From Clostridia bacterium (GTDB lineage Bacteria; Bacillota; Clostridia; TANB77; CAG-465), in contig JAUNGP010000001.1 of NCBI GenBank assembly GCA_030524345.1, forward strand, positions 130,191 to 194,190: 64,000 nucleotides of DNA, given 5' to 3'. Within the stretch, counting starts at the first letter, position 1. Each line of letters starts with the position of its first letter. Positions 1-63,722 of the stretch are shown here, in pieces. The notes beneath the pieces are model-generated. The model was not told the origin of the DNA and made no database searches. It saw only the letters and a list, made by a program, of their open reading frames with translations. The position numbers and the translations under genes are program-made.

Positions 1-1234
1 CTATTAATAACTTATCATATAATTCTAGTATAAATGTAGTTGTAATACCAAGTTTTTCTTTTTCTTCTTTCGAAAGATTTTCAACAATACATACATTATC
101 ACTTTCTATAGAAACCTTTATAGGAACTTCTATATATTGAGTACCATAAACAAGCGTTACATAGCTATATCCTTTTTCTTCATTTCTTTGAATTGCAGTT
201 TTAGGAACAGCCATTCCACTCACTTTTTTCCAAACCACTTCAGTACTGATGGTCCTTAAATCCACTAATTCTTCAATTCCATTATTTAGTTGAAAAATAT
301 TGTAATTATATTCATTACCTTCTATCGATTTTACTAATTTTGCTGTAATACTATCAACATCTTTCTCTCCAAATTTTAAGGTATAGCTTTTACCAATTGT
401 AATATATTCGCTATTTTTATCTTTTTCTTCTTTAATTAATATATACGCCTGATAATTATCCACAATTTTAATACCAAAATTACTAGCATTATTTTCTTTA
501 TATTTAGAAATAATATCTTCTAATTTTTCTATATCAAAATTCAAAATATCCTCAACATTTACGAAGTTCTCCAAATTATCAATTTTATAAGTAGCAACAC
601 CAGATACAGGTGCTATAATATTATCTGTTTCTGCAGATAAACTATTTTTTTCTACTACTTCTCTCTCCTCAATTAATTCTCTAACTTTTGAACCTTCTGG
701 ACTACGTTCTCCTAGTATAATTACTTTCTTATAAGCAAGTTCATCAATTTTAGTCTTATACTCTTGCATCTTTATGTATGAAGTCTCTTTCCTTGCTTCT
801 TTTGCTAAATTAGTAATTTGAGCATCTATTGAAGAAACATCATTAGAGTAAGATGCTGGTAAATCAAGTATTAGGGATTGTATGCTTTTATCAAGCTCTT
901 CTATTGTTTTAAGATATTCATCATATCTTTCATTTTTATAAATTGCGATTGTTTCCCCTTTAGCAACTCTTTTGTTTTGTTCTACTATTGGTATAGCTAC
1001 TTCAGTATTATTTAATTCTAATACTTTTTCATTCTTTAAAACGATACCTACTGAGTCAGTTGTTTTTTCAATATATCCATTTACTACTGTATATGTTGTT
1101 TTTACATTCAAATATTTCCTATATATAAAAATACTAAGTAAAATAGCAAAAATCATTATAGTGACCAATATATTATGTTTATTTTCTCTTATACGTTGAA
1201 TCATAGTCTTTTTTTCTATGCTTTTTTCCTTCAT
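1..1234 (-). CDS. HlyD-like membrane-fusion/adaptor-type protein, C-terminus cut by window edge (absent from supplied ORF track)
   Basis: Read by eye on minus strand: AAGGAG-N9-ATG at 1234, open frame to position 1 with no stop. N-terminal TM helix (ILVTIMIFAILLSIFIY), long coiled-coil stretch, then beta-rich part with APVSGV-type motif. Confidence 0.5.
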   Translation of the reverse strand, partial: MKEKSIEKKTMIQRIRENKHNILVTIMIFAILLSIFIYRKYLNVKTTYTVVNGYIEKTTDSVGIVLKNEKVLELNNTEVAIPIVEQNKRVAKGETIAIYKNERYDEYLKTIEELDKSIQSLILDLPASYSNDVSSIDAQITNLAKEARKETSYIKMQEYKTKIDELAYKKVIILGERSPEGSKVRELIEEREVVEKNSLSAETDNIIAPVSGVATYKIDNLENFVNVEDILNFDIEKLEDIISKYKENNASNFGIKIVDNYQAYILIKEEKDKNSEYITIGKSYTLKFGEKDVDSITAKLVKSIEGNEYNYNIFQLNNGIEELVDLRTISTEVVWKKVSGMAVPKTAIQRNEEKGYSYVTLVYGTQYIEVPIKVSIESDNVCIVENLSKEEKEKLGITTTFILELYDKLLI

Positions 1235-4821: not shown

Positions 4822-4903
4822 ATTGCCTCCAAAACTAATTTATATAAATTATACTATCATTTTACTAATTTATCAATAAATATTTAAATTTAAAATCTAA
4901 AAA

Positions 4904-4946: not shown

Positions 4947-7547
4947 TTATTTTAGTTTTTCTTTCAATTTATATAAAATTTCTAATGCATCTTTTGGAGT
5001 TAATTCATCTAAATCAGTTTTTTCAAGAATTTTGGATATCTCAGCCATTTTATAATTAAACATATCTACCTGAATTTCCTCAGTTGTTATCTTTTTCTTC
5101 TTTTCTTGAATCGTTTTCTTAGCAAGATCTACATTTTCTAAATACTTTAATATTTGTTTTGCCCTTGTAATAACTGGCTTTGCCACCCCTGCAAGTTTTG
5201 CTACATATATTCCATAAGATTCATCTGCTCCACCAGGTTTAATTTTTCTTAAGAATATTACATCATCACCTTTTTCTTTTACTTCTACAGAGTAATTCTT
5301 AACTCCTTCTATTTTTTGTTCAAGCTCTATTAATTCATGATAATGTGTTGCAAATAAAGTTTTAGCTCCAATTTTTTCCAAATCTGTAACATATTCTACA
5401 GTAGCCCAAGCAATAGCAAGTCCATCGTATGTAGATGTTCCTCTACCAATTTCATCAAGTATAATTAAACTATTCTTTGTAGCATTATTTAAAATATTTG
5501 ATAATTCCTGCATTTCCACCATAAAAGTTGATTGGCCCATAGCTAAGTCATCCGATGCACCAATTCTTGTAAATATTCTATCCACAATAGAAAGTCTTGC
5601 ACTATCTGCTGGTACAAATGATCCAAGTTGCGCCATATAAGAAATGATTGCTACTTGCCTCATATAGGTAGACTTACCTGCCATATTAGGTCCCGTAATA
5701 ATTAAAAATCTATCTGTTGTATTATTTAAGATCGTATCATTAGGTATAAAGTCTTCATCCTTTAAGGCTTTTTCTACTACTGCATGCCTACCATTGACTA
5801 TATTAATTTCACCTGTTTCTATAATTTCAGGTTTTACATAGTTATTGTTGACTGCCACAGTTGCAAAAGAAGAAAGTACATCTAAAATAGATATTACATT
5901 TGCAGTTCTTTGAATTCTAATCACTTGATCTGCAACTTTTTTTCGAATGTCGCAGAAAATATCATATTCAACGTCTATCAGTTTTCCCTTTGCTCCCAAA
6001 AGTTTATCTTCAATTTCTTTTAATTCTTCTGTAATATATCTCTCTGCACCAGCAAGAGTCTGTTTTCGAATATATCTATCTTCTGGTACCAAATTCTTAT
6101 AAGAATTAGTAACTTCAATATAATATCCAAAAACTCTATTATATCCAACCCTTAGCCATTTTCCCTTTATTCCAGTTCTTTCTTTTTCCTTTGCTTCAAG
6201 TTCCATAAGCCAGTCTTGACCGTCCGTAGATGCTTTTCTATATTCATCTACCCTTTCGTCAAATCCAGACTTGATAATTCCACCTTCTTTGATATTAATT
6301 CCTACATCTTCAATAATGGATTTATCAATGAGATCATAAACATCTTCTAATACATCTAAATTATTATATAATTCAGTAAAATATCCATCATTACTTTGTT
6401 TTACAACTCGTGCTATTAAATTCTTTAACTCAGGAAGTCTTTTTAGTGAATTTTTCAATGAAATCATTTCTCTGGCATTAGCGCTTGAACCAACAATTTT
6501 GGCTATTAATCTTTCAATATCATATACAGTTTTTAAAGTATCTTGTAAATCATCTTTTAATATATTATCCTTCGTTAAAATTTCTACTGCATTCTGCCTT
6601 TTAATAATTTCGGATTTATCAAGTAATGGAGCTTCAAGCCAATGCCTTAATGCTCTTCCTCCCATTGCTGTTACTGTTTCATCTAAAACCCACAAAAGAC
6701 TACCCTTTTTTGTCTTTTCACGATTGGCTTCTAATATTTCCAAATTTTTTCTAGTACTAGTATCAAGTTGCATATATTTTTCAATCTCATATCTATTAAT
6801 ACAATTTAACTGGTTAATATTAGATTTTTGGGTATCTTCAACATAATTTAGTAATAATTTAGCTGCATTGACTTCTAAATCAGAAAATCTATCTTTTGAC
6901 TTCCTTAACATATTATCCAAAAATACATTATCACTCATATCCCCATAAGAACTGGTATAAATATCAAAATGTTTCTTTAAATCTTTTAAAAAGAAAGTAT
7001 TTACGGTGATCGAATCAGGTAAAACAATCTCAGAAGGTGAAATTCTTGATATTTCATTTATAATTTTGATATTAACATCAAATCCTCCAACACTAGATAC
7101 AAAGAACTCACCTGTTGAAACATCGCAAAAAGCAATCGCACATTCTCTTTTTTCATAAATAATAGAAGCAATATAATTATTTTTCTTCTCATCTAACATT
7201 GTAAGCTCTGTAATAGTTCCAGGTGTTACTATTTTTACCACATCTCGCTTCACAAGTCCTTTTGCTTCCTTAGGATCTTCTAATTGTTCACATATTGCTA
7301 CTTTATATCCCTTTTCAACTAGCTTAGGTATATATGTATTCACAGCATGGTATGGAATTCCACACATAGGAGCCCTTTCTTCTAATCCACAGTCTTTTCC
7401 AGTAAGTGTAAGTTCTAACTCTTTACTACATGTTTTTGCGTCATCAAAAAACATTTCATAAAAGTCTCCTAATCTATAAAATAATATACAATCATTGTAT
7501 TTTTCCTTAGTATCTAGATACATTTGCATCATCGGTGTAAGTGCCAT
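4947..7547 (-). CDS. mutS: DNA mismatch repair protein MutS
   Basis: MutS N-terminus (TPMMQMYLDTKEKY, GDFYEMFFDDA); Walker A GPNMAGKST; DEIGRGTSTYDG. Confidence 0.97.
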   Translation of the reverse strand: MALTPMMQMYLDTKEKYNDCILFYRLGDFYEMFFDDAKTCSKELELTLTGKDCGLEERAPMCGIPYHAVNTYIPKLVEKGYKVAICEQLEDPKEAKGLVKRDVVKIVTPGTITELTMLDEKKNNYIASIIYEKRECAIAFCDVSTGEFFVSSVGGFDVNIKIINEISRISPSEIVLPDSITVNTFFLKDLKKHFDIYTSSYGDMSDNVFLDNMLRKSKDRFSDLEVNAAKLLLNYVEDTQKSNINQLNCINRYEIEKYMQLDTSTRKNLEILEANREKTKKGSLLWVLDETVTAMGGRALRHWLEAPLLDKSEIIKRQNAVEILTKDNILKDDLQDTLKTVYDIERLIAKIVGSSANAREMISLKNSLKRLPELKNLIARVVKQSNDGYFTELYNNLDVLEDVYDLIDKSIIEDVGINIKEGGIIKSGFDERVDEYRKASTDGQDWLMELEAKEKERTGIKGKWLRVGYNRVFGYYIEVTNSYKNLVPEDRYIRKQTLAGAERYITEELKEIEDKLLGAKGKLIDVEYDIFCDIRKKVADQVIRIQRTANVISILDVLSSFATVAVNNNYVKPEIIETGEINIVNGRHAVVEKALKDEDFIPNDTILNNTTDRFLIITGPNMAGKSTYMRQVAIISYMAQLGSFVPADSARLSIVDRIFTRIGASDDLAMGQSTFMVEMQELSNILNNATKNSLIILDEIGRGTSTYDGLAIAWATVEYVTDLEKIGAKTLFATHYHELIELEQKIEGVKNYSVEVKEKGDDVIFLRKIKPGGADESYGIYVAKLAGVAKPVITRAKQILKYLENVDLAKKTIQEKKKKITTEEIQVDMFNYKMAEISKILEKTDLDELTPKDALEILYKLKEKLK

Positions 7548-7588
7548 CTTTTTCTCCCCCTCTATAACTTGACCTATTATACGACTTA

Positions 7589-7617
7589 ATTATACCAAAA
7601 AAGACATTAAATTACAA
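7589..7617 (-). promoter_or_regulatory. sigma-A type promoter for mutS
   Basis: Minus strand TTGTAA (7617-7612), 17-nt spacer, TATAAT (7594-7589), about 40 nt upstream of the mutS ATG. Confidence 0.5.
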
Positions 7618-7620
7618 GAA

Positions 7621-7644
7621 AAAAAAACACCACCAAATGGTGGT
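7621..7644 (-). terminator. rho-independent terminator after the zinc-ribbon gene
   Basis: Minus strand ACCACC-ATTT-GGTGGT followed by G and a run of seven T. Confidence 0.65.
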
Positions 7645-7650
7645 ATTAAA

Positions 7651-7809
7651 TTAATAACTTCTTGTGTTGTTTCTTGCTTTTTTAGCATCTCTACAAGCTT
7701 TACATCTTACTGGATCAGAGAATTGTTTTTCATGATAGAATTCTTGCTCTGAGACAGAAAAAGTAAATTCATTGCCACAATCTTTGCATACAATTATTTT
7801 ATCTTCCAT
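7651..7809 (-). CDS. small zinc-ribbon protein (52 aa), below ORF-track cutoff
   Basis: AAAGGAGGAAAAAAATG start. Translation MEDKIIVCKDCGNEFTFSVSEQEFYHEKQFSDPVRCKACRDAKKARNNTRSY has two CxxC pairs. Own terminator follows. Confidence 0.6.
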   Translation of the reverse strand: MEDKIIVCKDCGNEFTFSVSEQEFYHEKQFSDPVRCKACRDAKKARNNTRSY

Positions 7810-21303: not shown

Positions 21304-21642
21304 TTAGAATTCTGCTATATCCTTTATTCCATTTGCAATTATTTTCTGCATATCAGCTAGTAATACATTGATTCTAATCTCAGATTCTAATAATTGCCTA
21401 CAAGCTTCATTTTTAGTAAGTTCAGCATACAAGTCTTGCATCTGCTGTAATTCATTTTCAGGAATTTCTTTTCCTTCTAGATATTTCATATGATGTTCTT
21501 GCTGTTTCGTCTTAAATTTCTTTAATTTTTCATAAGTTACATCATCTTTTTTTATTTCTTCTTTTAAGCTTAAAAATGTTTTATACTCATTTGTTTCTTT
21601 TAAGGCTTTAATTAACTCATGTATCTTATCATGAAAATTCAT
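21304..21642 (-). CDS. YlbF/YmcA-family (Com_YlbF-like) regulatory protein
   Basis: About 112-aa all-helical protein (MNFHDKIHELIKALKETNEYKTFLSLKEEI...). The ATG at 21642 is preferred over the track start at 21681. Confidence 0.5.
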   Translation of the reverse strand: MNFHDKIHELIKALKETNEYKTFLSLKEEIKKDDVTYEKLKKFKTKQQEHHMKYLEGKEIPENELQQMQDLYAELTKNEACRQLLESEIRINVLLADMQKIIANGIKDIAEF

Positions 21643-21719
21643 ATCATCACATCCTTTAAAGAATATTATATAACAAAACAATGTAAAAGCAAATAACTTT
21701 TTTTATTTTTATAAATCTT

Positions 21720-22469
21720 CTATATACTACTACATATTTGCATTTGTAATTCAGAGAGTTTATCTTTTTTATTGTTAATAAGTTGTGTCATATTTTGTAT
21801 GACATTGTTTTGATTCATGCACTCACTATCAAAATTTATATTACTTTTCTTTTTATTTAAGACATTAGCAATATGATTAATTGATTCTAAGTCAAATTTA
21901 TCATATGCTTGATACCATTCATTGCATGCATTTTTGAAATCATCAATTTTTTTCACACACTTTGTTAATCCCGCATTAATTTTATTTAAAAATTCATTAC
22001 TCATTATAAAGTCTTTTACCTTATCAAAGAAATCCTTTATATATACTGAATATACATTTTCACCAAGATACTTTTTCGATATAATTTCTATACTTGCATT
22101 AATTCCTTCTCTTAGTCCTCCAGAAACTGCTATATCTTTTATTTTAGATATGTCTTTTAATATTTCTTTAGGAAGTGATAAAACTTCTAAACCCTCTCTA
22201 ATACTACTATTTACAGCAGTTTTTAAAATCTCTTTGACATCTTTTGTTTTCAGTGAATCCTTAACATCTATTAATATATCTTTAATATGATTATTGATAG
22301 GCATTCCCCTTATAACATAATTTGCACCTTTATCAATAACATTTTCCACAATATTTGCGAATTCATTTCTATTTTTTACTAAATCTAAATCTATTTTGGA
22401 ATCTAAATCCAAATTTTTATCTACTTTATTATATGTACTAAGTTCTATTATATTTTCCAATATTATCAA
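21720..22469 (-). CDS. hypothetical helical protein of the VirB4-like operon
   Basis: 249-aa ORF overlapping the upstream ATPase gene by 4 nt (translational coupling). No TM segment and no motif recognised. Confidence 0.55.
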   Translation of the reverse strand: MIILENIIELSTYNKVDKNLDLDSKIDLDLVKNRNEFANIVENVIDKGANYVIRGMPINNHIKDILIDVKDSLKTKDVKEILKTAVNSSIREGLEVLSLPKEILKDISKIKDIAVSGGLREGINASIEIISKKYLGENVYSVYIKDFFDKVKDFIMSNEFLNKINAGLTKCVKKIDDFKNACNEWYQAYDKFDLESINHIANVLNKKKSNINFDSECMNQNNVIQNMTQLINNKKDKLSELQMQICSSI

Positions 22470-23608
22470 ATCCTTTCTAAACTTTCTTTCAGTCTTTTAT
22501 ATTTTTCCAGATACGTATTTAACTTACTTTTTATATGAAACATTTTAGATATTTCTTCAAACTCATAATCTAATGCAAATTCTGATATTGCTCCATTAAT
22601 ATAACTTTCAATATTTTTTCCATAATAAATTTTTCCAACAATTTTATATTCAGATAGCAAAGATTTCATTTGAGAAATCTCTAATGATCCCATTTTTATT
22701 TCATTTACAATAATAGATAGATTTTTATTGCCCAATTTTTCTAAATAATTTAAACTTCTTCTTACACTTAAGTAATTAGGTTTTACAATAAAAAAAATAT
22801 CTGTTACTCTCTCTAACCAAAATTTAGTGTATTCGTCAAATAAATCAGAAGATAAATCAATTATCAAATATTGATAATTCTTTAATAAAAATTTATATAA
22901 GCAATCTATCTTTTTCTTACTAAATTTTAAATTTTTACATGGCTTATTAATAACATAAGTTACACCTAATTTTTTTATTAGAAAATTACTAATGCCACTA
23001 TTATCATTTTGAATATATTGATGAAATGCCTTATTGTTACTATCTAAATTATTTAATATATCAATACTTGGATTTTCCATATTCATATCTAGTAATACTA
23101 CATTTTCACCTATATTTTTTACTAGATCTTTTGCAAGAAGAGTACTAGTCAAGGATTTTCCTACACTGCTTGTCCCACATATTCCAATGACCCTTCTTTT
23201 TTTATCATTTATATCAATATGATCAATATTTCTATATACTATACTTTGTGGATTATCAATATAATGTGTTAATATTTCAAAATCTATTGTATTTCCCTCA
23301 ATTATATTAAATACTTCATTTGCAAAAAGGAACTCCTTATATTCTTGGGTTAATTTATCTACAATATATACAATTTTAGACTTTTCACTTGCAAGTCTTA
23401 ACTGTTTTATATATAGCTTCTTATCTATATTTCCTTGTAATGTGTCTTTTGTAATCACAATAAAAGCCTCTTTTTTACTACTTAAAAATTCAATCACATT
23501 CTCCATACAATTAATGTCATGAATATATACCCTATTTTTATATCTTCTATCTAATCTTAACTTTATTTCTTTATTACCTATTGCCAATAATATTTTAATA
23601 ACTATCAC
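22466..23608 (-). CDS. TadZ/CpaE-like ParA/MinD-family ATPase with N-terminal pseudo-receiver domain
   Basis: Deviant Walker A IGICGTSSVGKSLTS at about residue 142, Walker B-like YLIIDLSSD. The N-terminal approx 120 aa are receiver-like but lack the acidic pocket (KILLAIGNKE). Confidence 0.65.
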   Translation of the reverse strand: MIVIKILLAIGNKEIKLRLDRRYKNRVYIHDINCMENVIEFLSSKKEAFIVITKDTLQGNIDKKLYIKQLRLASEKSKIVYIVDKLTQEYKEFLFANEVFNIIEGNTIDFEILTHYIDNPQSIVYRNIDHIDINDKKRRVIGICGTSSVGKSLTSTLLAKDLVKNIGENVVLLDMNMENPSIDILNNLDSNNKAFHQYIQNDNSGISNFLIKKLGVTYVINKPCKNLKFSKKKIDCLYKFLLKNYQYLIIDLSSDLFDEYTKFWLERVTDIFFIVKPNYLSVRRSLNYLEKLGNKNLSIIVNEIKMGSLEISQMKSLLSEYKIVGKIYYGKNIESYINGAISEFALDYEFEEISKMFHIKSKLNTYLEKYKRLKESLERI

Positions 23609-25346
23609 CTTCTATTAAATTTCTTTCATATTCACTAGCTTTAATATTAAGTGTCGTAATATTATTCTTAAAACTAATGACTGCCTCTCCTTTATCTAAT
23701 TTCATTAGTTCATTAATTTCAACACTATTGATAACACCAAGTTTTTTTAATATTTCACTTCCCAAATAATCAACCTTAAAAAACATTTTAAAGCAACAAT
23801 TATTTAAAATACTTTTCCCATAATTTCCATTTTCAAATGCAAAAAAATCCGTAATATCTTGAGTAATTGTAACGATACCTGCATTATTTTTCCTTATCGT
23901 TTTAAATAGCATGAATATAACACTTGAAATATTTTCATCACTAGTATTATTTACATATCTCCATACTTCATCTATATAAATTATTGTTTTATTTTTATTA
24001 GAATGATTCTTTAAATAGGATGCCATCTTCTCTAGTATGAATTTTATAACTAAATTATTAATATTTCTGGTATCAAATAAAATAAGTTTATTATGAATAT
24101 CCACATTTGTATATGTAGAAAAGCACTTTAATTTTGTTGTAAATACTTGTCTTAGTTTAATTGTTAACTCTTCTGGCATTTCATAATTTAAAATATCTGT
24201 AAGAATGGGAAAATCATTTGTATCTTTAATAACCTTATCTATATATATGCTATTTTTATCGCTAATCTTATATAATGATCGTATATCAAAGGTAATATTT
24301 TTACTTTTATATGCATTTATGATTGCACTATGTAAATAGCTTATATCTTCATCACTTTCTATATTAATTATTTTCTTCAATATTTCTAATACTTCATTGA
24401 TTTTTTGTTTTACTACATTACTTCCAAATCTATTGATGTCTAAATCAAAAATTTGCATGATATTAATATAAGTATTTTCACTCAAAGAAAATACTTCTCC
24501 ATTAATCATTTTGATAAAATGATTATATTCTCCTTCAGGATCAAATATATATTGTACTTTGGAATTCATATATTCTTTAAATATCATAAGTTTTGTAAAA
24601 AAAGATTTACCCGAGCCACTACTTCCAAATATACACATATTAGAATTAAAATATTTATTACTAAAAATATCTATATTAAACAGTTTATTATCATTTTTTG
24701 TCATCCCAAATATAATGCCATTCTCATCAAAAACATTTTTCGTATAAAATGGGAAAAAGTTAGTAACGCAAGATGTTGTCATACTTCTATAATTCGTTTT
24801 TAGTATTCTATTTTTATTATCATTTAATGGAAGATTTAAAAGATAAGCATCTAAATGCCTAAAATTACTTATAATTGAAACAATCTGTTTAGAAAAAAGT
24901 TTTGTTTGAAATGATTTTAAAATTTGTAATAGCTCTGACTTATCGATAGAATAAAATGTTATAATAAAAGAAAGATTATATATTTCTTCATTGTTAATTT
25001 GGATCTCTCGCCTTAAATTCTTAGCATCATCTTTTGATTTGTTTAAAATATCAATATCTACCTGATTTTTACTTATAGTATTAATTTCTGCTGAAGAAGA
25101 GGAAATATAATAAGTCAACTCTTTAAGAAATTTCATAATGTCTTGTTTTTGAAGGAACATGGATATATCATATGAAAAATTTTTAGGAATTGTCTCTATT
25201 AAATCTAAAAAAAATGATTTTTTAGGATATTCTTTTATAATTAAACTTGATATATATTTATTATCAACTTTAATATATTTAAAATCAATATTTTCAATAT
25301 ATGATGGTAAAATATTTAAATTATCTTGTTCATCTATATTAAACAT
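23595..25346 (-). CDS. VirB4-family (Firmicute conjugation ATPase-like) protein, C-terminal three quarters including the ATPase domain
   Basis: Walker A CIFGSSGSGKSFFTK, FDPEGEY, Walker B IIYIDEVWRY, GIVTITQDITDF. These lie in the order and spacing of Gram-positive VirB4/Orf16-type ATPases. Confidence 0.8.
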   Translation of the reverse strand: MFNIDEQDNLNILPSYIENIDFKYIKVDNKYISSLIIKEYPKKSFFLDLIETIPKNFSYDISMFLQKQDIMKFLKELTYYISSSSAEINTISKNQVDIDILNKSKDDAKNLRREIQINNEEIYNLSFIITFYSIDKSELLQILKSFQTKLFSKQIVSIISNFRHLDAYLLNLPLNDNKNRILKTNYRSMTTSCVTNFFPFYTKNVFDENGIIFGMTKNDNKLFNIDIFSNKYFNSNMCIFGSSGSGKSFFTKLMIFKEYMNSKVQYIFDPEGEYNHFIKMINGEVFSLSENTYINIMQIFDLDINRFGSNVVKQKINEVLEILKKIINIESDEDISYLHSAIINAYKSKNITFDIRSLYKISDKNSIYIDKVIKDTNDFPILTDILNYEMPEELTIKLRQVFTTKLKCFSTYTNVDIHNKLILFDTRNINNLVIKFILEKMASYLKNHSNKNKTIIYIDEVWRYVNNTSDENISSVIFMLFKTIRKNNAGIVTITQDITDFFAFENGNYGKSILNNCCFKMFFKVDYLGSEILKKLGVINSVEINELMKLDKGEAVISFKNNITTLNIKASEYERNLIEGDSY

Positions 25347-25861
25347 TCTTTATGAAAGCTTTCATATAATAGTTTTTCAATATTTTGCTTTCCAATTAAT
25401 CTATTTACCACACATCCAAGTTTATTTAATTTTTGAAAAGTTAAATCAATTTCCTCTATATTCATATTTTTTTGCTCCATACTTAATATAACATAGTATT
25501 TTGTGATATATATTTTTTCATTATTTAATTTTTCTTTTATATCAATCAAATAGTCACTTAAAAACTTCTTAAATTTCTCGTTATTCTGTGTTAAAATGCT
25601 TTCTTTTAGGTTTGTAATATAATTTTCAACATTCATTTTTCTATTTTGTATATAAATTTGTATATCCAAATTCATTTCTCTTAAAAATTCGTTATATACC
25701 ATATATATGCTATTTTGTACTTCTATAGAAAAATCAAGTAATGTAACTGGTATCACTTCATAAATATATTTCTTATAAAACTTATTATCACTTTTTGTTA
25801 AAATATATTCATCATTAATATTATTGATTTTATAAATTTCTTTGATATCTTTAAATTTCAG
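25334..25861 (-). CDS. VirB4-family N-terminal domain fragment (separate ORF, 13-nt overlap with the ATPase ORF)
   Basis: Track ORF 25334-25756 starts at GTG. The frame stays open upstream to a CTG at 25861 placed 9 nt after GGAGGG. The sequence (KFKDIKEIYKINNINDEYILTKSDNKFYKKYIYEV...) is colinear with the VirB4 N-terminus. Confidence 0.55.
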   Translation of the reverse strand: MKFKDIKEIYKINNINDEYILTKSDNKFYKKYIYEVIPVTLLDFSIEVQNSIYMVYNEFLREMNLDIQIYIQNRKMNVENYITNLKESILTQNNEKFKKFLSDYLIDIKEKLNNEKIYITKYYVILSMEQKNMNIEEIDLTFQKLNKLGCVVNRLIGKQNIEKLLYESFHKECLI

Positions 25862-25909
25862 TGTATTTTTCCCTCCAATCTTTCTTAAAGATACAAAATT
25901 CCCAAAAAT

Positions 25910-25995
25910 AGATTATCATTTTATTTTTCATAAGTCAATAGTTATGTAATATATTTTCGTCGCAAGTTTCGACAAATAGTTGTTTTTTTGTCGTA
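25910..25995 (-). promoter_or_regulatory. promoter of the VirB4-like operon with upstream Spo0A-box-like sites (shared divergent control region)
   Basis: Minus strand: TTGACT (25938-25933), 17 nt, TAATCT (25915-25910) with TG extension. Upstream are TGTCGAA (complement of 25968-25974) and CGACGAA (complement of 25956-25962). On the plus strand TGTCGTA lies at 25989-25995. Confidence 0.5.
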
Positions 25996-26015
25996 TTTTG
26001 AAATATATTTTTCTA

Positions 26016-26044
26016 TTCACAATAATGAATGTATTGCATATAAT
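26016..26044 (+). promoter_or_regulatory. sigma-A promoter of the divergent small-protein operon
   Basis: TTCACA (26016-26021), 17-nt spacer, TATAAT (26039-26044), 25 nt upstream of the ATG at 26070. Confidence 0.5.
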
Positions 26045-26069
26045 TTAAATATAAGAAGGAGATGATTAT

Positions 26070-26243
26070 ATGAATAATGATTCTAAAGAAATGAATACAA
26101 TGCTAAATTCAAAACTTATAGAATTACTATCTACAATTGATAAAAATAAAATCGAACAAGTAACAAAGATGGTTCAAAATATGTCTAGTGAAGATTTAAA
26201 CAATTTAGTTAGAATGCTTGGAAAAAATTCAAATAATAAATAA
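26070..26243 (+). CDS. small hypothetical protein (57 aa), below ORF-track cutoff
   Basis: AGGAGATGATTATATG start. Translation MNNDSKEMNTMLNSKLIELLSTIDKNKIEQVTKMVQNMSSEDLNNLVRMLGKNSNNK. First gene of the plus-strand operon. Confidence 0.5.
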   Translation: MNNDSKEMNTMLNSKLIELLSTIDKNKIEQVTKMVQNMSSEDLNNLVRMLGKNSNNK

Positions 26244-26248
26244 AAATT

Positions 26249-26701
26249 ATGAATAATGAAAATAACAATGTAGAAAATTCATCTACAGACAATTCAAAAG
26301 CATTATCTGATTTAATTCAAAGTATCCAAGCAAAAATGGAACCTGAAGAAATAAAAAGTATACAGGAAGAGCCAAAAGAAGAAAACAATAATTTAAATTC
26401 GATTCTAAGTAATTTAGATATTTCTTCTCTTTTAAGTGCGTTTGGCAATAATACAAGTGAAAATAGTAATAATAGTAATAATAACCATAGTTTTTCTGGA
26501 ATAGATCCAAATTTATTATTCAAAATTCAAAAAATCATGTCATCAATGTCAAAGGAAGATCCTAAAAAAAATTTACTGCTTTCCTTAAAGCCATTTCTTA
26601 GGAAATCTAGACAAGACAAAATTAATGAATACATATCTATGCTTACAATTGTTAATGCAATAGAAGTTTTTAGTGATAAAGGTAGTGATAAAAATGTTTA
26701 A
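26249..26701 (+). CDS. hypothetical protein with low-complexity N/S/E-rich N-terminus and conserved-looking C-terminal helix region
   Basis: 150-aa ORF. The C-terminal part (IDPNLLFKIQKIMSSMSKEDPKKNLLLSLKPFLRKSRQDKINEYISMLTIVNAIEVF) resembles a small protein family common in Clostridia, from memory only. Confidence 0.5.
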   Translation: MNNENNNVENSSTDNSKALSDLIQSIQAKMEPEEIKSIQEEPKEENNNLNSILSNLDISSLLSAFGNNTSENSNNSNNNHSFSGIDPNLLFKIQKIMSSMSKEDPKKNLLLSLKPFLRKSRQDKINEYISMLTIVNAIEVFSDKGSDKNV

Positions 26702-27119
26702 TGAAAATCCATATTATAGAAATTATCGTTATAGTAACTATTATCGATATAATAACAGTTTTATTCCTACCTACTATCCTAATAAAGATTATAAAGTAGA
26801 AAGTGAAAAACATTCAGATTCTTCTATACAAAATCCTGCTGAAGAAAATCAAGAGACATATGTAAAAAAAGAAGAAAAAAAAGAATAAGTTCCAAAAAAT
26901 GATTTTGATTCTTCTTCTAAAAAACAATTTCGATTAGGACCTTTTTCAATCAATGACAATTCTATAAATCTCTTTGGATTTAATATTGCAATAGATGATC
27001 TTATCATAATAGGTCTTATTCTCTTACTACTCTTTCAATCAGAAACAGACTATATCATAATTATTATTCTTGGTCTAATATTATTAAATATTGATTTTAG
27101 CAGTTTAAATCTTTTTTAG
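26695..27119 (+). pseudogene. small Y/N-rich protein gene with hydrophobic C-terminus, interrupted by one in-frame TAA (26886-26888)
   Basis: ATG at 26695 overlaps the upstream stop. The frame stops at TAA 26886-26888 and continues open, in the same frame and with no start codon, for 76 more codons to TAG 27117-27119 (…FRLGPFSINDNSINLFGFNIAIDDLIIIGLILLLLFQSETDYIIIIILGLILL…). Confidence 0.45.
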
Positions 27120-27258
27120 TATCCTTTAAACTGCTATAATATTTGACTAGCAATTTATCTATTTCAACACTTGTTTTATATATTACCTCATAAGGTTCAT
27201 TATCCTGAATTTGTTTTTCTAACTTTAATTTTAATTTATCTATATCATCTAACAACAT
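27097..27258 (-). CDS. Spo0E-family aspartyl-phosphate phosphatase-like small protein (53 aa), below ORF-track cutoff
   Basis: AAGGAAGTTGATTATATG start. Translation MLLDDIDKLKLKLEKQIQDNEPYEVIYKTSVEIDKLLVKYYSSLKDTKKDLNC. The helix-hairpin and the S-x-E-I/L-D-K-L-I/L-x-x-Y pattern resemble Spo0E/YisI/YnzD. Confidence 0.55.
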   Translation of the reverse strand: MLLDDIDKLKLKLEKQIQDNEPYEVIYKTSVEIDKLLVKYYSSLKDTKKDLNC

Positions 27259-27283
27259 ATAATCAACTTCCTTTTATACTAAA

Positions 27284-27353
27284 CTTATACCATCTTTGTA
27301 TAAGGTTGTCAATATTTGTAATATATAATTCGATCGCAAATTTCGACAAAATG
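27284..27353 (-). promoter_or_regulatory. promoter of the spo0E-like gene with Spo0A-box-like sites, paralogous to the VirB4-operon promoter
   Basis: Minus strand TTGACA (27312-27307), 17 nt, TATAAG (27289-27284). Upstream is TGTCGAA (complement of 27342-27348) and a second GCGATCGAA element. Confidence 0.5.
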
Positions 27354-46392: not shown

Positions 46393-47778
46393 GTGGAAAA
46401 CTTTATGGAAATATGGTCTCAAGCCTTGGAAATACTACAAGATGAGATATCTCCAGTTGGATACAAAACTTATGTTGATGTCATGATTCCAAGACTCGTA
46501 GATGAAAATACTTTATGCTTTTTATCGCCTTCAAATTATCATATTGATATTTGTAAAAAAAGATATTTAGATCTAATACAAAATACATTAACATTTTTAA
46601 CAAAGAAATCATATAATATAATTTTTGAAGCAAAGGAAATTATACCAGAAACATCTCAAAATGATGTAGAAACAGTAGAAGTAAAAGAAAACCTATATCA
46701 GGAAGACAAGCCAACGCCAATCATTAATACAAGTAATGATAATTTATCTGAAGTAGAGGGATTAAATCCTAAATATACATTTGAAAATTTTATAGTAGGT
46801 TCAAATAATAGATTCGCACATGCAGCTTCTGTTGCAGTTTATGAAAATCCTGGAAAAAAATATAATCCGTTATTTATTTATGGGGGAGTAGGACTTGGTA
46901 AAACTCACTTGATGCAAGCAATTGGTAATGCTATGTATAAAGCAAATCCAAATATTAGAATACTTTATTGTACTGGAGAATTGTTTGCAAATGAGCTAGT
47001 TTCTGCAATAATGACTGATAAAAATGAATCTTTTAGAAAAAAGTACAGAAATATAGATTTATTACTAATAGATGATATACAATTTTTAGCTGGAAAAGAA
47101 AAATGTCAAGAAGAGTTTTTCCACACTTTTAATACTTTATTTGAAAGTGGTAAGCAAATAGTACTTACATCCGAAAAACCTCCTAAAGAAATAGCTCTAT
47201 TAGAAGATAGATTAAAAACTAGATTTGAAATGGGACTGTCTGTTGATATTCAAACACCAGACTATGAAACACGTTTAGCAATTTTAAGACGAAAAGCGGA
47301 AAAGGAAAGATATGTAATAAATGATGATATATTAGTCAAAATTGCAACAAGAGTAAAATCTAACATTAGAGAGCTAGAAGGTGTTTTTAATAAACTCGTT
47401 GCATATACCTCATTTACAAATAACGAACTTACTGATGCAGTAGTTGAAAATACTATAGAATCAATACTTGTAAAGAATACTAAAGTTTTAACAAGTAAAT
47501 TAATAATGCAAGTAGTTTGTAAATTCTTTAATATAAAAGTTAGTGACATAGTAAGTGATAAAAGATCTAATAGTGTAGCTTTTCCAAGACAAATTGCAAT
47601 GTATTTATGTAGGGAAGTAGCAAACCTATCTTTTCCGGCAATAGGAAGAGATTTTGGAGGAAGGGATCATTCAACCGTATTACATGCTTATTCTAAAATT
47701 AAAGATGAATATGATAAGAATACGGAAACACACGATTTAATAGAAGATATTAAAAAAGAATTATCAATAGAAGACTAA
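46393..47778 (+). CDS. dnaA: chromosomal replication initiator protein DnaA
   Basis: AAA+ Walker A GGVGLGKTHL, LLIDDIQF, and the C-terminal DnaA signature (DHSTVLHA). GTG start at 46393, or possibly the ATG at 46405. Confidence 0.97.
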   Translation: MENFMEIWSQALEILQDEISPVGYKTYVDVMIPRLVDENTLCFLSPSNYHIDICKKRYLDLIQNTLTFLTKKSYNIIFEAKEIIPETSQNDVETVEVKENLYQEDKPTPIINTSNDNLSEVEGLNPKYTFENFIVGSNNRFAHAASVAVYENPGKKYNPLFIYGGVGLGKTHLMQAIGNAMYKANPNIRILYCTGELFANELVSAIMTDKNESFRKKYRNIDLLLIDDIQFLAGKEKCQEEFFHTFNTLFESGKQIVLTSEKPPKEIALLEDRLKTRFEMGLSVDIQTPDYETRLAILRRKAEKERYVINDDILVKIATRVKSNIRELEGVFNKLVAYTSFTNNELTDAVVENTIESILVKNTKVLTSKLIMQVVCKFFNIKVSDIVSDKRSNSVAFPRQIAMYLCREVANLSFPAIGRDFGGRDHSTVLHAYSKIKDEYDKNTETHDLIEDIKKELSIED

Positions 47779-61748: not shown

Positions 61749-61784
61749 ATAGAATGCAATAACTTACTTTGCATTCTATTTTTT
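61749..61784 (+). terminator. rho-independent terminator after ftsZ
   Basis: ATAGAATGCAA-loop-TTGCATTCTAT followed by T5. Confidence 0.7.
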
Positions 61785-61809
61785 GACATATATGTTATAA
61801 TGGTTTCAA
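61783..61809 (+). repeat. third copy of the 27-nt promoter-like core of the hairpin module
   Basis: TTGACATATATGTTATAATGGTTTCAA versus TTGACATACATGTTATAATAGTTTCAA at 39511-39485 (minus), about 25 of 27 identical. Lies 40 nt upstream of the 61850 ORF. Confidence 0.6.
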
Positions 61810-61849
61810 AATAATTCTCAATCAATTAATAGTTTAAGGAGGAATTTCT

Positions 61850-62131
61850 ATGAATGATTATTTAGAGAAATTTTTAAGACAAGCAATTATGAATCAAATC
61901 AAATTAGAAAGGCAAGAAGAGCAATTAGAATTTGAATTTTGGCTTGCGGGAACGCAAATATTGATGCACAATTATAATGGGAAAGCATATATTAGTTGTT
62001 GGAACGATGAAAAAGGTAAGTACGTTGATGCTATTGTTGGATGGAAGGAAATCGATAATCAGGTTGGATTTCAAATATCCTATGATGAATATACATCTAA
62101 ACAAGATTTAGGAATTTATCATTGGATGTAA
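61850..62131 (+). CDS. hypothetical protein between ftsZ and spoIIGA
   Basis: 93-aa ORF with AAGGAGGA RBS. No motif recognised. Confidence 0.5.
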   Translation: MNDYLEKFLRQAIMNQIKLERQEEQLEFEFWLAGTQILMHNYNGKAYISCWNDEKGKYVDAIVGWKEIDNQVGFQISYDEYTSKQDLGIYHWM

Positions 62132-62205
62132 TAAAATAACATTTCTCTGTCAAAGTTTTACAAAAAAAATAACCCAAAATTATTATAATAAGTCTAGGTG
62201 ATTAT

Positions 62206-63018
62206 ATGAAAATCTACCTAGACTATATTTTTTTAGAAAATTTAGTAGTGAATTTAATAGTAATTGAAGAGCTAACAGTTTTTGTAAAAGATAGACTTAA
62301 ATTGATAAAGAAGATACTAATATCAGCAATGATATCATTATATACTACTGTTATATATATTTATTCAGATTCTTGGATAAGTTCTAATATTGTAAAAATA
62401 TTGGTAATCAGTATTGCAATTTATTTGCTATATAAACCAAGAAAAATAAATTATTATATAAAATTAATTATAGTATATTATTTAATATCTTTTCTTTATG
62501 TAGGGACTGTTATTTCTATAGCACTCCTTTTTAAAATTTCGCTTGAAAATATGATCTTTAAATTGTTGTTATACTTGATTTCAGGAATCATTTTAAATAT
62601 TTTTACAAAATACATTTGGAAAATATTTAAAAGTAATATTAAGTCAAATGATCTAATATATATAATGTATATTGGTAATCAAAAAATAAAAAGTTTTGTA
62701 GATACTGGTAGTAATGTTAAAGATAATATAACAGGCTTAGATGTAATATTTATCAACTGTAAATATTATGAAGAAATAAAAAAAAGTAACATTTTAAACA
62801 AAGAAACATATATTGATATACAAACTGTAGCTGGAAAGCAAAAGGTGAAAGGATATATAGTAGAAAATATAGATTTTTTTCAAAATAATAAACGTGTAGC
62901 AAAAATAAAAAAAATAGTAATATCATTTACATTGCAAGAAATGGAAAACGCAGAAAAATATAGTGCACTGATTGGTTACAATACATATATTGAGAATTTA
63001 AAGGGGGTTACTATATGA
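62206..63018 (+). CDS. spoIIGA: sigma-E processing peptidase SpoIIGA
   Basis: [21 protein letters not shown]-terminus, five TM helices, aspartic protease motif [14 protein letters not shown] overlap with sigE. Confidence 0.85.
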
Positions 63019-63722
63019 TAGTTGGTAAAATAAAAGATATATATTTGACCATGTTAAAATTTTTTGGAGTAGATGAGAATACAATATTTTATATAGCAGG
63101 TGCAGATACATTGCCTGCACCACTTACGCAAGATGAAGAACAAGAATTGTTAGAAAAACTTATGAAAAAAGATGTAGAAGCTAAGAATATTTTAATAGAG
63201 AGAAATTTAAGACTTGTTGTATATATAGCTAAAAAATTTGAAAATTCAGGAATTAATATAGAAGATTTAATTTCTATAGGAACCATTGGATTAATGAAAG
63301 CTATTAATAGTTACGATTTAGAAAAAAATATAAAACTTGCAACTTATGCTTCTAGATGTATAGAAAATGAAATATTGATGTTCTTAAGGAAAAATAACAG
63401 GATCAAAACGGAAATTTCAATCGATGAACCAATCAATATTGATAGTGAAGGAAATGATTTATCACTTGGAGATATATTAGGAACAGATAATGATAGTATC
63501 TTTAAATCTATAGAAGATGATGATAATAAAAAAATATTATGTGAGGCAATTCAAAATTTAAATAATAGAGAAAAAACGATTATGCAACTAAGATATGGAT
63601 TTGATGGAATAGAAGAACTTACTCAAAAAGAAGTAGCAGATAAATTAGGAATTTCGCAATCATATATTTCTAGAATAGAGAAAAAAGTGATCAATGGTCT
63701 TAAAAAAGATTTTTTTAAATAA
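63015..63722 (+). CDS. sigE: RNA polymerase sporulation sigma factor SigE (pro-sigma-E)
   Basis: Pro-sequence followed by [17 protein letters not shown], region 2 ([27 protein letters not shown]) and region 4 ([23 protein letters not shown]). Confidence 0.93.

Follow-up and report, generated by a model that had tools for sequence, protein, structure and literature searches.

Two arrangements are familiar among promoters controlled by phosphorylated Spo0A (Spo0A~P): 0A boxes overlap a defective -35 at promoters of the spoIIG type and lie downstream of the start at those of the abrB type. In Bacillus subtilis, AbrB represses spo0E and Spo0A~P represses abrB. According to Meijer, Salas and co-workers, host Spo0A reportedly controls the early promoters of phage phi29 via 0A boxes. 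Truncated spo0A genes in human-gut phages have already been published (Schwartz et al. 2023, mBio, PMC10294663). The subject of this study is a 15-nt composite element that occurs twice in a 64-kb stretch of DNA from a Clostridia bacterium (the window, by which we mean the whole 64,000 nt analysed), once ahead of a VirB4-like operon and once ahead of a Spo0E-like gene. Judging from sequence comparison, we think it probable that both copies are upstream operators of one transcription factor, with phosphorylated Spo0A the likeliest candidate.

A composite element ahead of two promoters

On the minus strand, the element TGTCGAAAYTTGCGA is found twice, each time as part of a 17-mer, TTTGTCGAAAYTTGCGA, and the two copies are 1374 bp apart (Table 1). 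The 17-mer has exactly two occurrences in the 64 kb; when up to three mismatches are allowed, it matches at 3 places where 0.38 would be expected, a number that 0 of 100 shuffles reached. In a repeat search, the element pair was the region's longest direct repeat, at 43 nt. An earlier note on this DNA, made from the sequence alone, had described two near-identical regions of roughly 70 nt. Both stretches were verified in sequence and coordinates on the minus strand, together with their common -35 element, and the repeat is real over the first 45 nt or so, where the likeness is concentrated; near-identity over the full length was overstated, however, as gapped identity over 70 nt is 71%.

The core of the element, TGTCGAA, is exactly the 0A box (TGNCGAA, optimally TGTCGAA), and the note was right that both copies carry it in perfect form ahead of promoters, here predicted to be of the sigma-A type. 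Taken alone, this core is not significant in the 64-kb window (3 matches versus 2.4 expected). The note had also proposed a second, degenerate box one helical turn away. That box (CGACGAA or ATCGAA, at +12 or +13) varies in orthologues, where TGAA, CGAA, CCGA and TCGA are found, and the conserved second element is instead TTGCGA, starting 9-10 nt after the first box. The ATATATTACA block that it listed as common is indeed present in both copies; beyond the window it is shared by the nearest relatives only.

In both copies, the element is followed after 21 nt by a TTGAC -35, a 17-nt spacer, and a TGn-extended -10. The -35 matches TTGACA at 5 of 6 positions in copy 1 and at all 6 in copy 2, and the -10 hexamers are TAATCT and TATAAG. 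Neither promoter was listed by a promoter scanner, because these two hexamers break its rule for the -10.

The strongest evidence for a function comes from related loci. Relatives of the VirB4-like ATPase define 79 loci (L001-L079), in which the proteins are only 40-50% identical; the element was counted in L001-L070 (864 kb), allowing up to two mismatches to TGTCGAAACTTGCGA and with Markov shuffles as control. This gave 67 matches where 0.2 were expected, so that a chance repeat was rejected. All 67 are on the gene strand, and each precedes one of two genes, either the first of the operon or, some 1.3 kb further upstream, the Spo0E-like gene; TTGAC follows 20-21 nt downstream in 66 of them. 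Conservation upstream of orthologues, a check that the note had proposed, is thus found with the same -35 spacing at 66 of 67 sites. A dispersed repeat unrelated to promoters, which the note had raised as a possible undoing of its idea, was rejected as well, since every copy in the orthologous loci sits at one of two promoter positions on the gene strand. Counterparts of copy 1 occupy the corresponding place in 33 related loci, and counterparts of copy 2 precede the Spo0E-like gene in at least 39.

Across 72 orthologous sites, positions 1-8 and 10-14 are constant in 70-72, whereas position 9 and all positions beyond 15 vary. All seven bases of the 0A core (T1, G2, T3, C4, G5, A6, and A7) are retained in 70-72 of the 72, among them G2, C4, and G5, the bases of the 0A box that Spo0A contacts (PMC3485338). 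A6 and G12 are present in 72 of 72, so the asymmetry of the element is strictly retained. The sites were chosen by similarity, and this conservation is therefore partly circular, but a gene-anchored comparison gives the same result. Across the clade, conservation is confined to the 15-mer and the promoter hexamers, while the spacers drift; for the Spo0E-like promoter, the orthologue consensus is TTGACA-N17-TGGTATAAA. The invariant positions of the element are G+C rich, within intergenic DNA of 23-27% G+C. About 50 genomes retain the element at one fixed locus close to the replication origin, and no prophage lies in its vicinity. These comparisons make it very likely that we are dealing with a cis-regulatory site of deep conservation, held in fixed helical register with two promoters and under strong purifying selection throughout the clade.

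More distant lineages differ in a telling way. Their Spo0E-like promoter reads TGTCGAA-AAA-TAGCGAA-ACT-TGCGGTCGA (with TGCGG after ACT) and their operon promoter reads TGTCGAA-N3-TGTC(A/T)TA-N9-TTGACA. The boxes there are direct tandem repeats at 10-bp spacing, one helical turn nearer the -35 than in the clade of the window. A separate feature of at least 13 Spo0E-like promoters (L010-L024 and others) is an additional TTGACA, in the form TTTTTTGACAAC, which precedes the true -35 by 13 nt; it is one base off the reversed 0A box, TTCGACA.

The element also reads as an imperfect palindrome, GTCGAAA-N-TTGCGAC. A terminator was considered and rejected, both because a promoter and terminator scan found no terminator-like site and for the reason that a stem of 7 bp cannot close on a loop of 1 nt. 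Rfam matches in the window were limited to tRNAs, and three phage loci gave none; on this result a riboswitch or small-RNA explanation was dropped. A literature search with exact 14-mers of the element, on both strands, found no occurrence. To our knowledge, the consensuses of cre, CodY, Rex, LexA, CtsR, parS, and TnrA/GlnR do not fit the 15-mer either.

Genes and sporulation context around the element

Copy 2 always precedes a Spo0E-like gene of about 50 codons (49-63 aa across its forms), in keeping with what the note had claimed. The Pfam SpoOE-like family is matched at E<=0.01 by 32 of 37 orthologues, with a best value of 1.5e-6; the protein of the window itself scores below the cutoff (Table 1). 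The signature of the Spo0E family is an S-Q-E-L-D-type motif with a conserved Asp. In the window protein, the corresponding stretch is T29-S30-V-E-I33-D34, and its T, S, I, and D do not vary among 37 sequences (T-S-x-x-I-D). A single-sequence AlphaFold model gives a helical hairpin (pLDDT 94.5; helices 3-18 and 23-52). This fold is generic, and a search with it does not discriminate, the Bacillus anthracis phosphatase 2C0S coming at rank 23 with E=4.7 and 28% identity; a PDB profile search with the protein returned no Spo0E entry. On these findings, we regard the family of the small protein as Spo0E-like.

For copy 1, the note was also right that it stands ahead of the VirB4-like operon and faces the divergent small-protein operon. 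The likely CTG start of operon gene 1 is 9 nt after GGAGGG (25871-25876). When gene 1 and the ATPase are joined, the VirB4 model match extends N-terminally (positions 103-893/894 and 40-731/752), yet even then the scores stay far below the curated cutoffs (186.8 versus 590 and 162.5 versus 325). Family searches of the window proteins found no coupling protein, relaxase, channel, or partner type IV secretion system (T4SS) genes in the operon. The ATPase, as judged from these matches, is split VirB4-like in fold and P-loop and does not qualify as the T4SS ATPase of a conjugation system. The operon that encodes the split ATPase (23595-25861) together with a ParA/CpaE-like protein is chromosomal and lies near the origin, an arrangement seen clade-wide (L001-L079, around 5450-7750). 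In many genomes, gene 1 apparently starts at CTG, ATT, or ATA, 7-9 nt past a strong GGAGGG (25859-25876 on the minus strand of the window, and L027, L030, L035, L103, L104, and L115), while in other genomes the start is ATG.

Between the two copies lies the small-protein operon, which has homologues in related loci (e.g., L083). Its divergent promoter is conserved in orthologues as TCACAA...TGCATATAAT, and the distance from it to the element varies by genome. A near-0A box, TGTCGTA, is at 25989-25995 on the plus strand, 20 nt upstream of the -35 of this promoter. In the mouse-gut relative L001, the small-protein operon has length polymorphisms at 4833 and 4923, a 24-nt ATTAGT-repeat insertion and a 9-nt deletion.

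At 27% G+C, the window takes in the region of the replication origin, with a dnaA-sized open reading frame (ORF) at 46393. Its closest relatives are metagenome-assembled genomes of uncultured gut Clostridia, including Clostridium sp. CAG:465, CAG:1219, and CAG:921. Sporulation genes in the window include spoIIGA (PF03419), a sigma-E-type sigma factor, SpmA/B-like ORFs, an M50 protease, and Amidase_3. A -35-like hexamer with a 21- to 22-nt spacer is the hallmark of the Spo0A-dependent spoIIG promoter. Here, the spoIIG promoter has TGTCAAA at 62148-62154, the -35-like TTTACA at 62157-62162, a 21-nt spacer, and TATAAT at 62184-62189, all on the plus strand. The long spacer (21-22 nt after the -35-like hexamer) is conserved in 8 related loci, and close relatives have a TG(T/C)CAAA box just upstream of the -35-like hexamer. 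This architecture favors a working Spo0A in the clade, although it does not favor the assignment of the composite site. Between ftsZ and spoIIGA there is also a 93-aa ORF (61851-62132, plus strand) with promoter-like sequence (region 61760-62132); at this position L475 has a counterpart of 93 aa and L479 one of 126 aa, and none was called in other relatives.

Table 1. Positions in the window of the element copies, promoters, and genes discussed
Feature	Position	Strand	Details
Composite element copy 1, TGTCGAAACTTGCGA	25960-25974	-	0A core TGTCGAA 25968-25974; TTGCGA 25960-25965
Copy 1 17-mer, TTTGTCGAAACTTGCGA	25960-25976	-	Then 21 nt to -35
Predicted sigma-A-type promoter, VirB4-like operon	25910-25938	-	-35 TTGACT 25933-25938; 17-nt spacer; -10 TGaTAATCT 25910-25918
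Composite element copy 2, TGTCGAAATTTGCGA	27334-27348	-	0A core 27342-27348
Copy 2 17-mer, TTTGTCGAAATTTGCGA	27334-27350	-	Then 21 nt to -35
Predicted sigma-A-type promoter, Spo0E-like gene	27284-27312	-	-35 TTGACA 27307-27312; 17-nt spacer; -10 TGgTATAAG 27284-27292
Spo0E-like protein, 53 aa	27097-27258	-	Pfam SpoOE-like (PF09388) E=0.0022, 18.4 bits; cutoff 23
Divergent small-protein promoter	26016-26044	+	TTCACA-17-TATAAT; best-scoring site of the promoter scan
Three-ORF small-protein operon (57, 150, 71 aa)	26070-26888	+	No family match
Operon gene 1, ~175 aa, counterpart of VirB4 N-terminal domain	25334-25861	-	Likely start CTG 25861
VirB4/TraG-P-loop-like ATPase, 583 aa	23595-25346	-	Overlaps end of gene 1
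ParA/MinD/CpaE-like P-loop protein, 380 aa	22466-23608	-	Next operon gene
249-aa protein, no assigned family	21720-22469	-	After ParA/CpaE-like gene
YlbF-like gene	21304-21681	-	After 249-aa protein gene
spoIIGA-sigE operon with Spo0A-type promoter	62148-63722 (genes 62206-63722)	+	Context evidence

The element in metagenomes and prophages

A metagenome scan for the element plus a -35 yielded 36 contigs, most of which represent the same two genes. The sites beyond these are at a secreted-protein/signal-peptidase operon, a gene adjoining spoIIR, and a ruvC leader, and the scan also placed the element at five real promoters in Firmicutes-like contigs of higher G+C. In L089 (7201-8378, minus strand) and L102 (1874-2666, plus strand), both low-G+C contigs, the element and promoter stand ahead of secreted proteins of about 200 aa and a signal peptidase (Peptidase_S24/S26). 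The secreted proteins have no Pfam match; the operon is possibly TasA/SipW-like and may be a further member of the regulon. In L114, the element precedes a gene for a 148-aa protein without a family match (473-1021, plus strand), divergent from spoIIR (PF09551; 1-397, minus strand).

The exact 15-mer is also present in at least 119 IMG/VR contigs, of which about 90 represent three conserved prophage contexts. In these, the 15-mer ends 10 nt before a -35-like hexamer, and in one context an extra TGTCGAA lies 10 bp upstream. The promoter sits between tail-fiber or lysis genes and the 3' end of a CI-like repressor gene; a second promoter with a LexA-type box comes next, followed by a small ORF. 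The order of the module is 15-mer, P1, a short conserved RNA (TTGTCCGAnAGGnCACTTCAAGTTCTGG), P2 with the LexA-type box, the small ORF, and a terminator. The LexA-type box, CGAACAnAnGTTC, lies between TTGAC and TATAAT of P2, and the module is convergent to the CI-like repressor gene. It was seen in L116, L120, L131, L183, L218, and about 90 further IMG/VR loci (L116-L234). The repressor adjoining the identical motif is of three different types among the phages; since the repressor type differs while the motif stays the same, the motif is not the operator of that repressor. Given the LexA-type box on the next promoter, the prophage module would appear to read global regulators of the host.

Some of these phages encode a Spo0A domain of their own. 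A stand-alone Spo0A_C protein of 126-128 aa is found in 14 of the motif-bearing contigs and in 74 of 80 members of one prophage family; it matches PF08769 at E=7e-34 and aligns over its full length with the Spo0A DNA-binding domains 1FC3 and 1LQ1. Within the early operon, its gene follows that of an AntA-type antirepressor; the distance from the 15-mer, which is upstream on the same strand, is 1.9-3.5 kb (examples are L184, 1343-1723, minus strand; L183, 9468-9854, plus strand; and L235-L314). In a scan with B. subtilis Spo0A leading the query alignment, 314 stretches in IMG/VR viral contigs were confirmed to encode a Spo0A_C relative, and 297 in a scan with the phage Spo0A_C protein; scans with the phage protein returned one near-identical family only.

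Candidate regulators and comparison with known systems

How might Spo0A act at these sites? We imagine that the perfect 0A box, 2-3 bases, and then TTGCGA would seat the two protomers of a Spo0A dimer, TTGCGA taking the second. The site would lie at about -71 to -57 from the predicted start of an extended -10 sigma-A promoter, always on the same face of the helix, and both promoters would respond together as Spo0A~P rises. Activation from this upstream, class I-like position seems likelier to us than repression, but as near-consensus promoters need no obvious activator, the sign of regulation is a guess. The Spo0E-family phosphatase made from one promoter would drain Spo0A~P, giving a direct negative feedback, while the other promoter would express the operon of the split VirB4-like ATPase, with a possible effect on the divergent small-protein operon as well. 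Because their boxes are perfect, the two promoters might be early, low-threshold targets, whereas the degenerate boxes of spoIIG would mark it as a late one. The identity of the factor, the sign, and the feedback loop are what we infer from these arrangements.

Several observations weigh against this assignment to Spo0A. Although invariant, TTGCGA is not a canonical 0A box, and in the window copies it matches that box at no more than 5 of 7 positions in either orientation. The near-consensus -35 and extended -10 need no obvious activator. The composite is absent from the spoIIG promoters of the clade, the canonical Spo0A target, and a tblastn search with B. subtilis Spo0A found no spo0A match in the 64-kb window or in L001-L079; the genome presumably has spo0A, to go by its other sporulation genes. 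Among 60 diverse viral Spo0A_C contigs, identified with B. subtilis Spo0A leading the query alignment, only one more has the composite, and the phage argument was for this reason cut back from a general one to one limited to a lineage. Transcript data are uninformative on start sites: public sequencing runs include none with the window itself, and the mouse-gut metatranscriptome contigs of L001, a 72%-identical relative, cover intergenic DNA as well, at flat depth. Finally, the imperfect palindrome would also suit another dimeric helix-turn-helix protein.

That last point leads to the most serious alternative, in which GTCGAAA-N-TTGCGAC is the operator of another dimeric regulator, of the Xre type or another helix-turn-helix family, and the match to the 0A box is incidental. 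Six of seven base pairs are symmetric about the center of the element, the invariance of TTGCGA equals that of the 0A core, a phage variant in L238 is a perfect palindrome (GTCGCAA-C-TTGCGAC), and in two metagenome contigs (L085 and L093) the site is beside divergent Xre-type repressor genes. A symmetric dimer, however, should accept symmetric variants, whereas A6 and G12 never change in the 72 sites; in distant lineages, the right half is exchanged for direct TGTC repeats at 10-bp spacing. The phage site is identical beside three repressor types, family searches of the window proteins found no conserved DNA-binding protein at the locus, and simple repressors do not usually sit upstream of the -35 in fixed helical phase. 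On balance we consider such a regulator unlikely, while giving it real weight.

It is less likely still, and in our view improbable, that the site is bound by a stand-alone Spo0A_C protein, phage derived or a chromosomal paralogue, so that the promoters answer to prophage state or to the paralogue rather than to the phosphorelay. Such proteins do exist: the phage family with the exact 15-mer encodes one of 126-128 aa with a conserved recognition helix, and truncated spo0A genes in phages are documented (PMC10294663). The chromosomal element, on the other hand, occupies its origin-proximal locus in about 50 genomes without a prophage nearby, the flanks read for most motif-bearing phage groups lack a Spo0A_C gene, and neither the window nor the orthologous loci yielded one. 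A relic of local promoter-cassette duplication, or a structural or UP-like element without a dedicated regulator, we hold to be highly improbable. In the window and its closest relatives, the copies do have common spacer bases such as ATATATTACA, but clade-wide only the 15-mer and promoter hexamers are kept, G+C-rich invariant positions in intergenic DNA of 23-27% G+C are not like an UP element, and the same 15-mer is found at unrelated genes and in phages.

Binding by Spo0A~P therefore stays our preferred reading, and an extended composite form of a 0A-type operator is, from the sequences compared, the best available explanation of the element. A wider proposal is more tentative and, to our minds, possible rather than probable: that TGTCGAAAYTTGCGA(Y)CGAAA is an unrecognized high-affinity composite operator for Spo0A-type domains, which, in uncultured gut Clostridia, would couple to the onset of sporulation both the origin-proximal split-VirB4/CpaE-like operon, with a minimal Spo0E phosphatase, and a gut-prophage induction module (some of the phages supplying a constitutive Spo0A domain themselves). 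If Spo0A does bind, the element would provide a very specific operator with which to predict early Spo0A targets in uncultured low-G+C gut Clostridia, in which plain TGTCGAA searches are near noise (as in the window). The minimal Spo0E phosphatase and the uncharacterized, clade-wide operon of the split VirB4-like ATPase would then both be tied to the sporulation decision, the truncated spo0A genes of human-gut phages would have a first candidate DNA target, and the idea that prophages read or rewrite the host sporulation state would become directly testable.

The closest comparison is with the 0A-box promoters of B. subtilis and Clostridioides difficile (abrB, spoIIG, spoIIE, spo0A, and sigH). 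The 7-bp core TGTCGAA is the same, sites phased at about 10 bp are found in relatives, and the predicted controlled genes belong to the sporulation-initiation circuit; the direct repeats of the distant lineages, at 10-bp spacing, resemble abrB in particular. At our locus, in contrast, the perfect box is fused to an invariant, nonstandard TTGCGA, and binding is predicted. Unlike the spoIIG and abrB types, the element is fixed 21 nt upstream of a near-consensus -35. The proposed circuit is also reminiscent of the Spo0A-AbrB-Spo0E feedback of B. subtilis, in that a rise in Spo0A~P would raise a Spo0E-family phosphatase that removes the phosphate. Here, though, the link would be direct, with no AbrB step, and the phosphatase is a minimal one of 49-63 aa.

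Class I activator sites offer an analogy of architecture, CRP being positioned at -61.5 or -71.5. The element likewise keeps a strict helical register with the -35, and its alternative positions are one turn apart (21 nt versus 10-11 nt); the likeness goes no further than architecture, as the protein family is different and contact with the alpha-CTD is not claimed. In phi29, 0A boxes in phage promoters let phage development read the sporulation state of the host, and the parallel here is that, in many gut prophages, a promoter of the lysogeny region has the 15-mer upstream of it. The phages and hosts are others, however, the site is upstream of the -35 and beside a LexA-boxed promoter, and some of the phages carry a Spo0A domain of their own. 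The stand-alone Spo0A effector domains of these human-gut phages recall the truncated spo0A genes of Schwartz et al. (PMC10294663). Whereas that report, in the part consulted, deals with genes only and describes no DNA target, a candidate target is proposed here in the same phages, one that they would have in common with chromosomal promoters.

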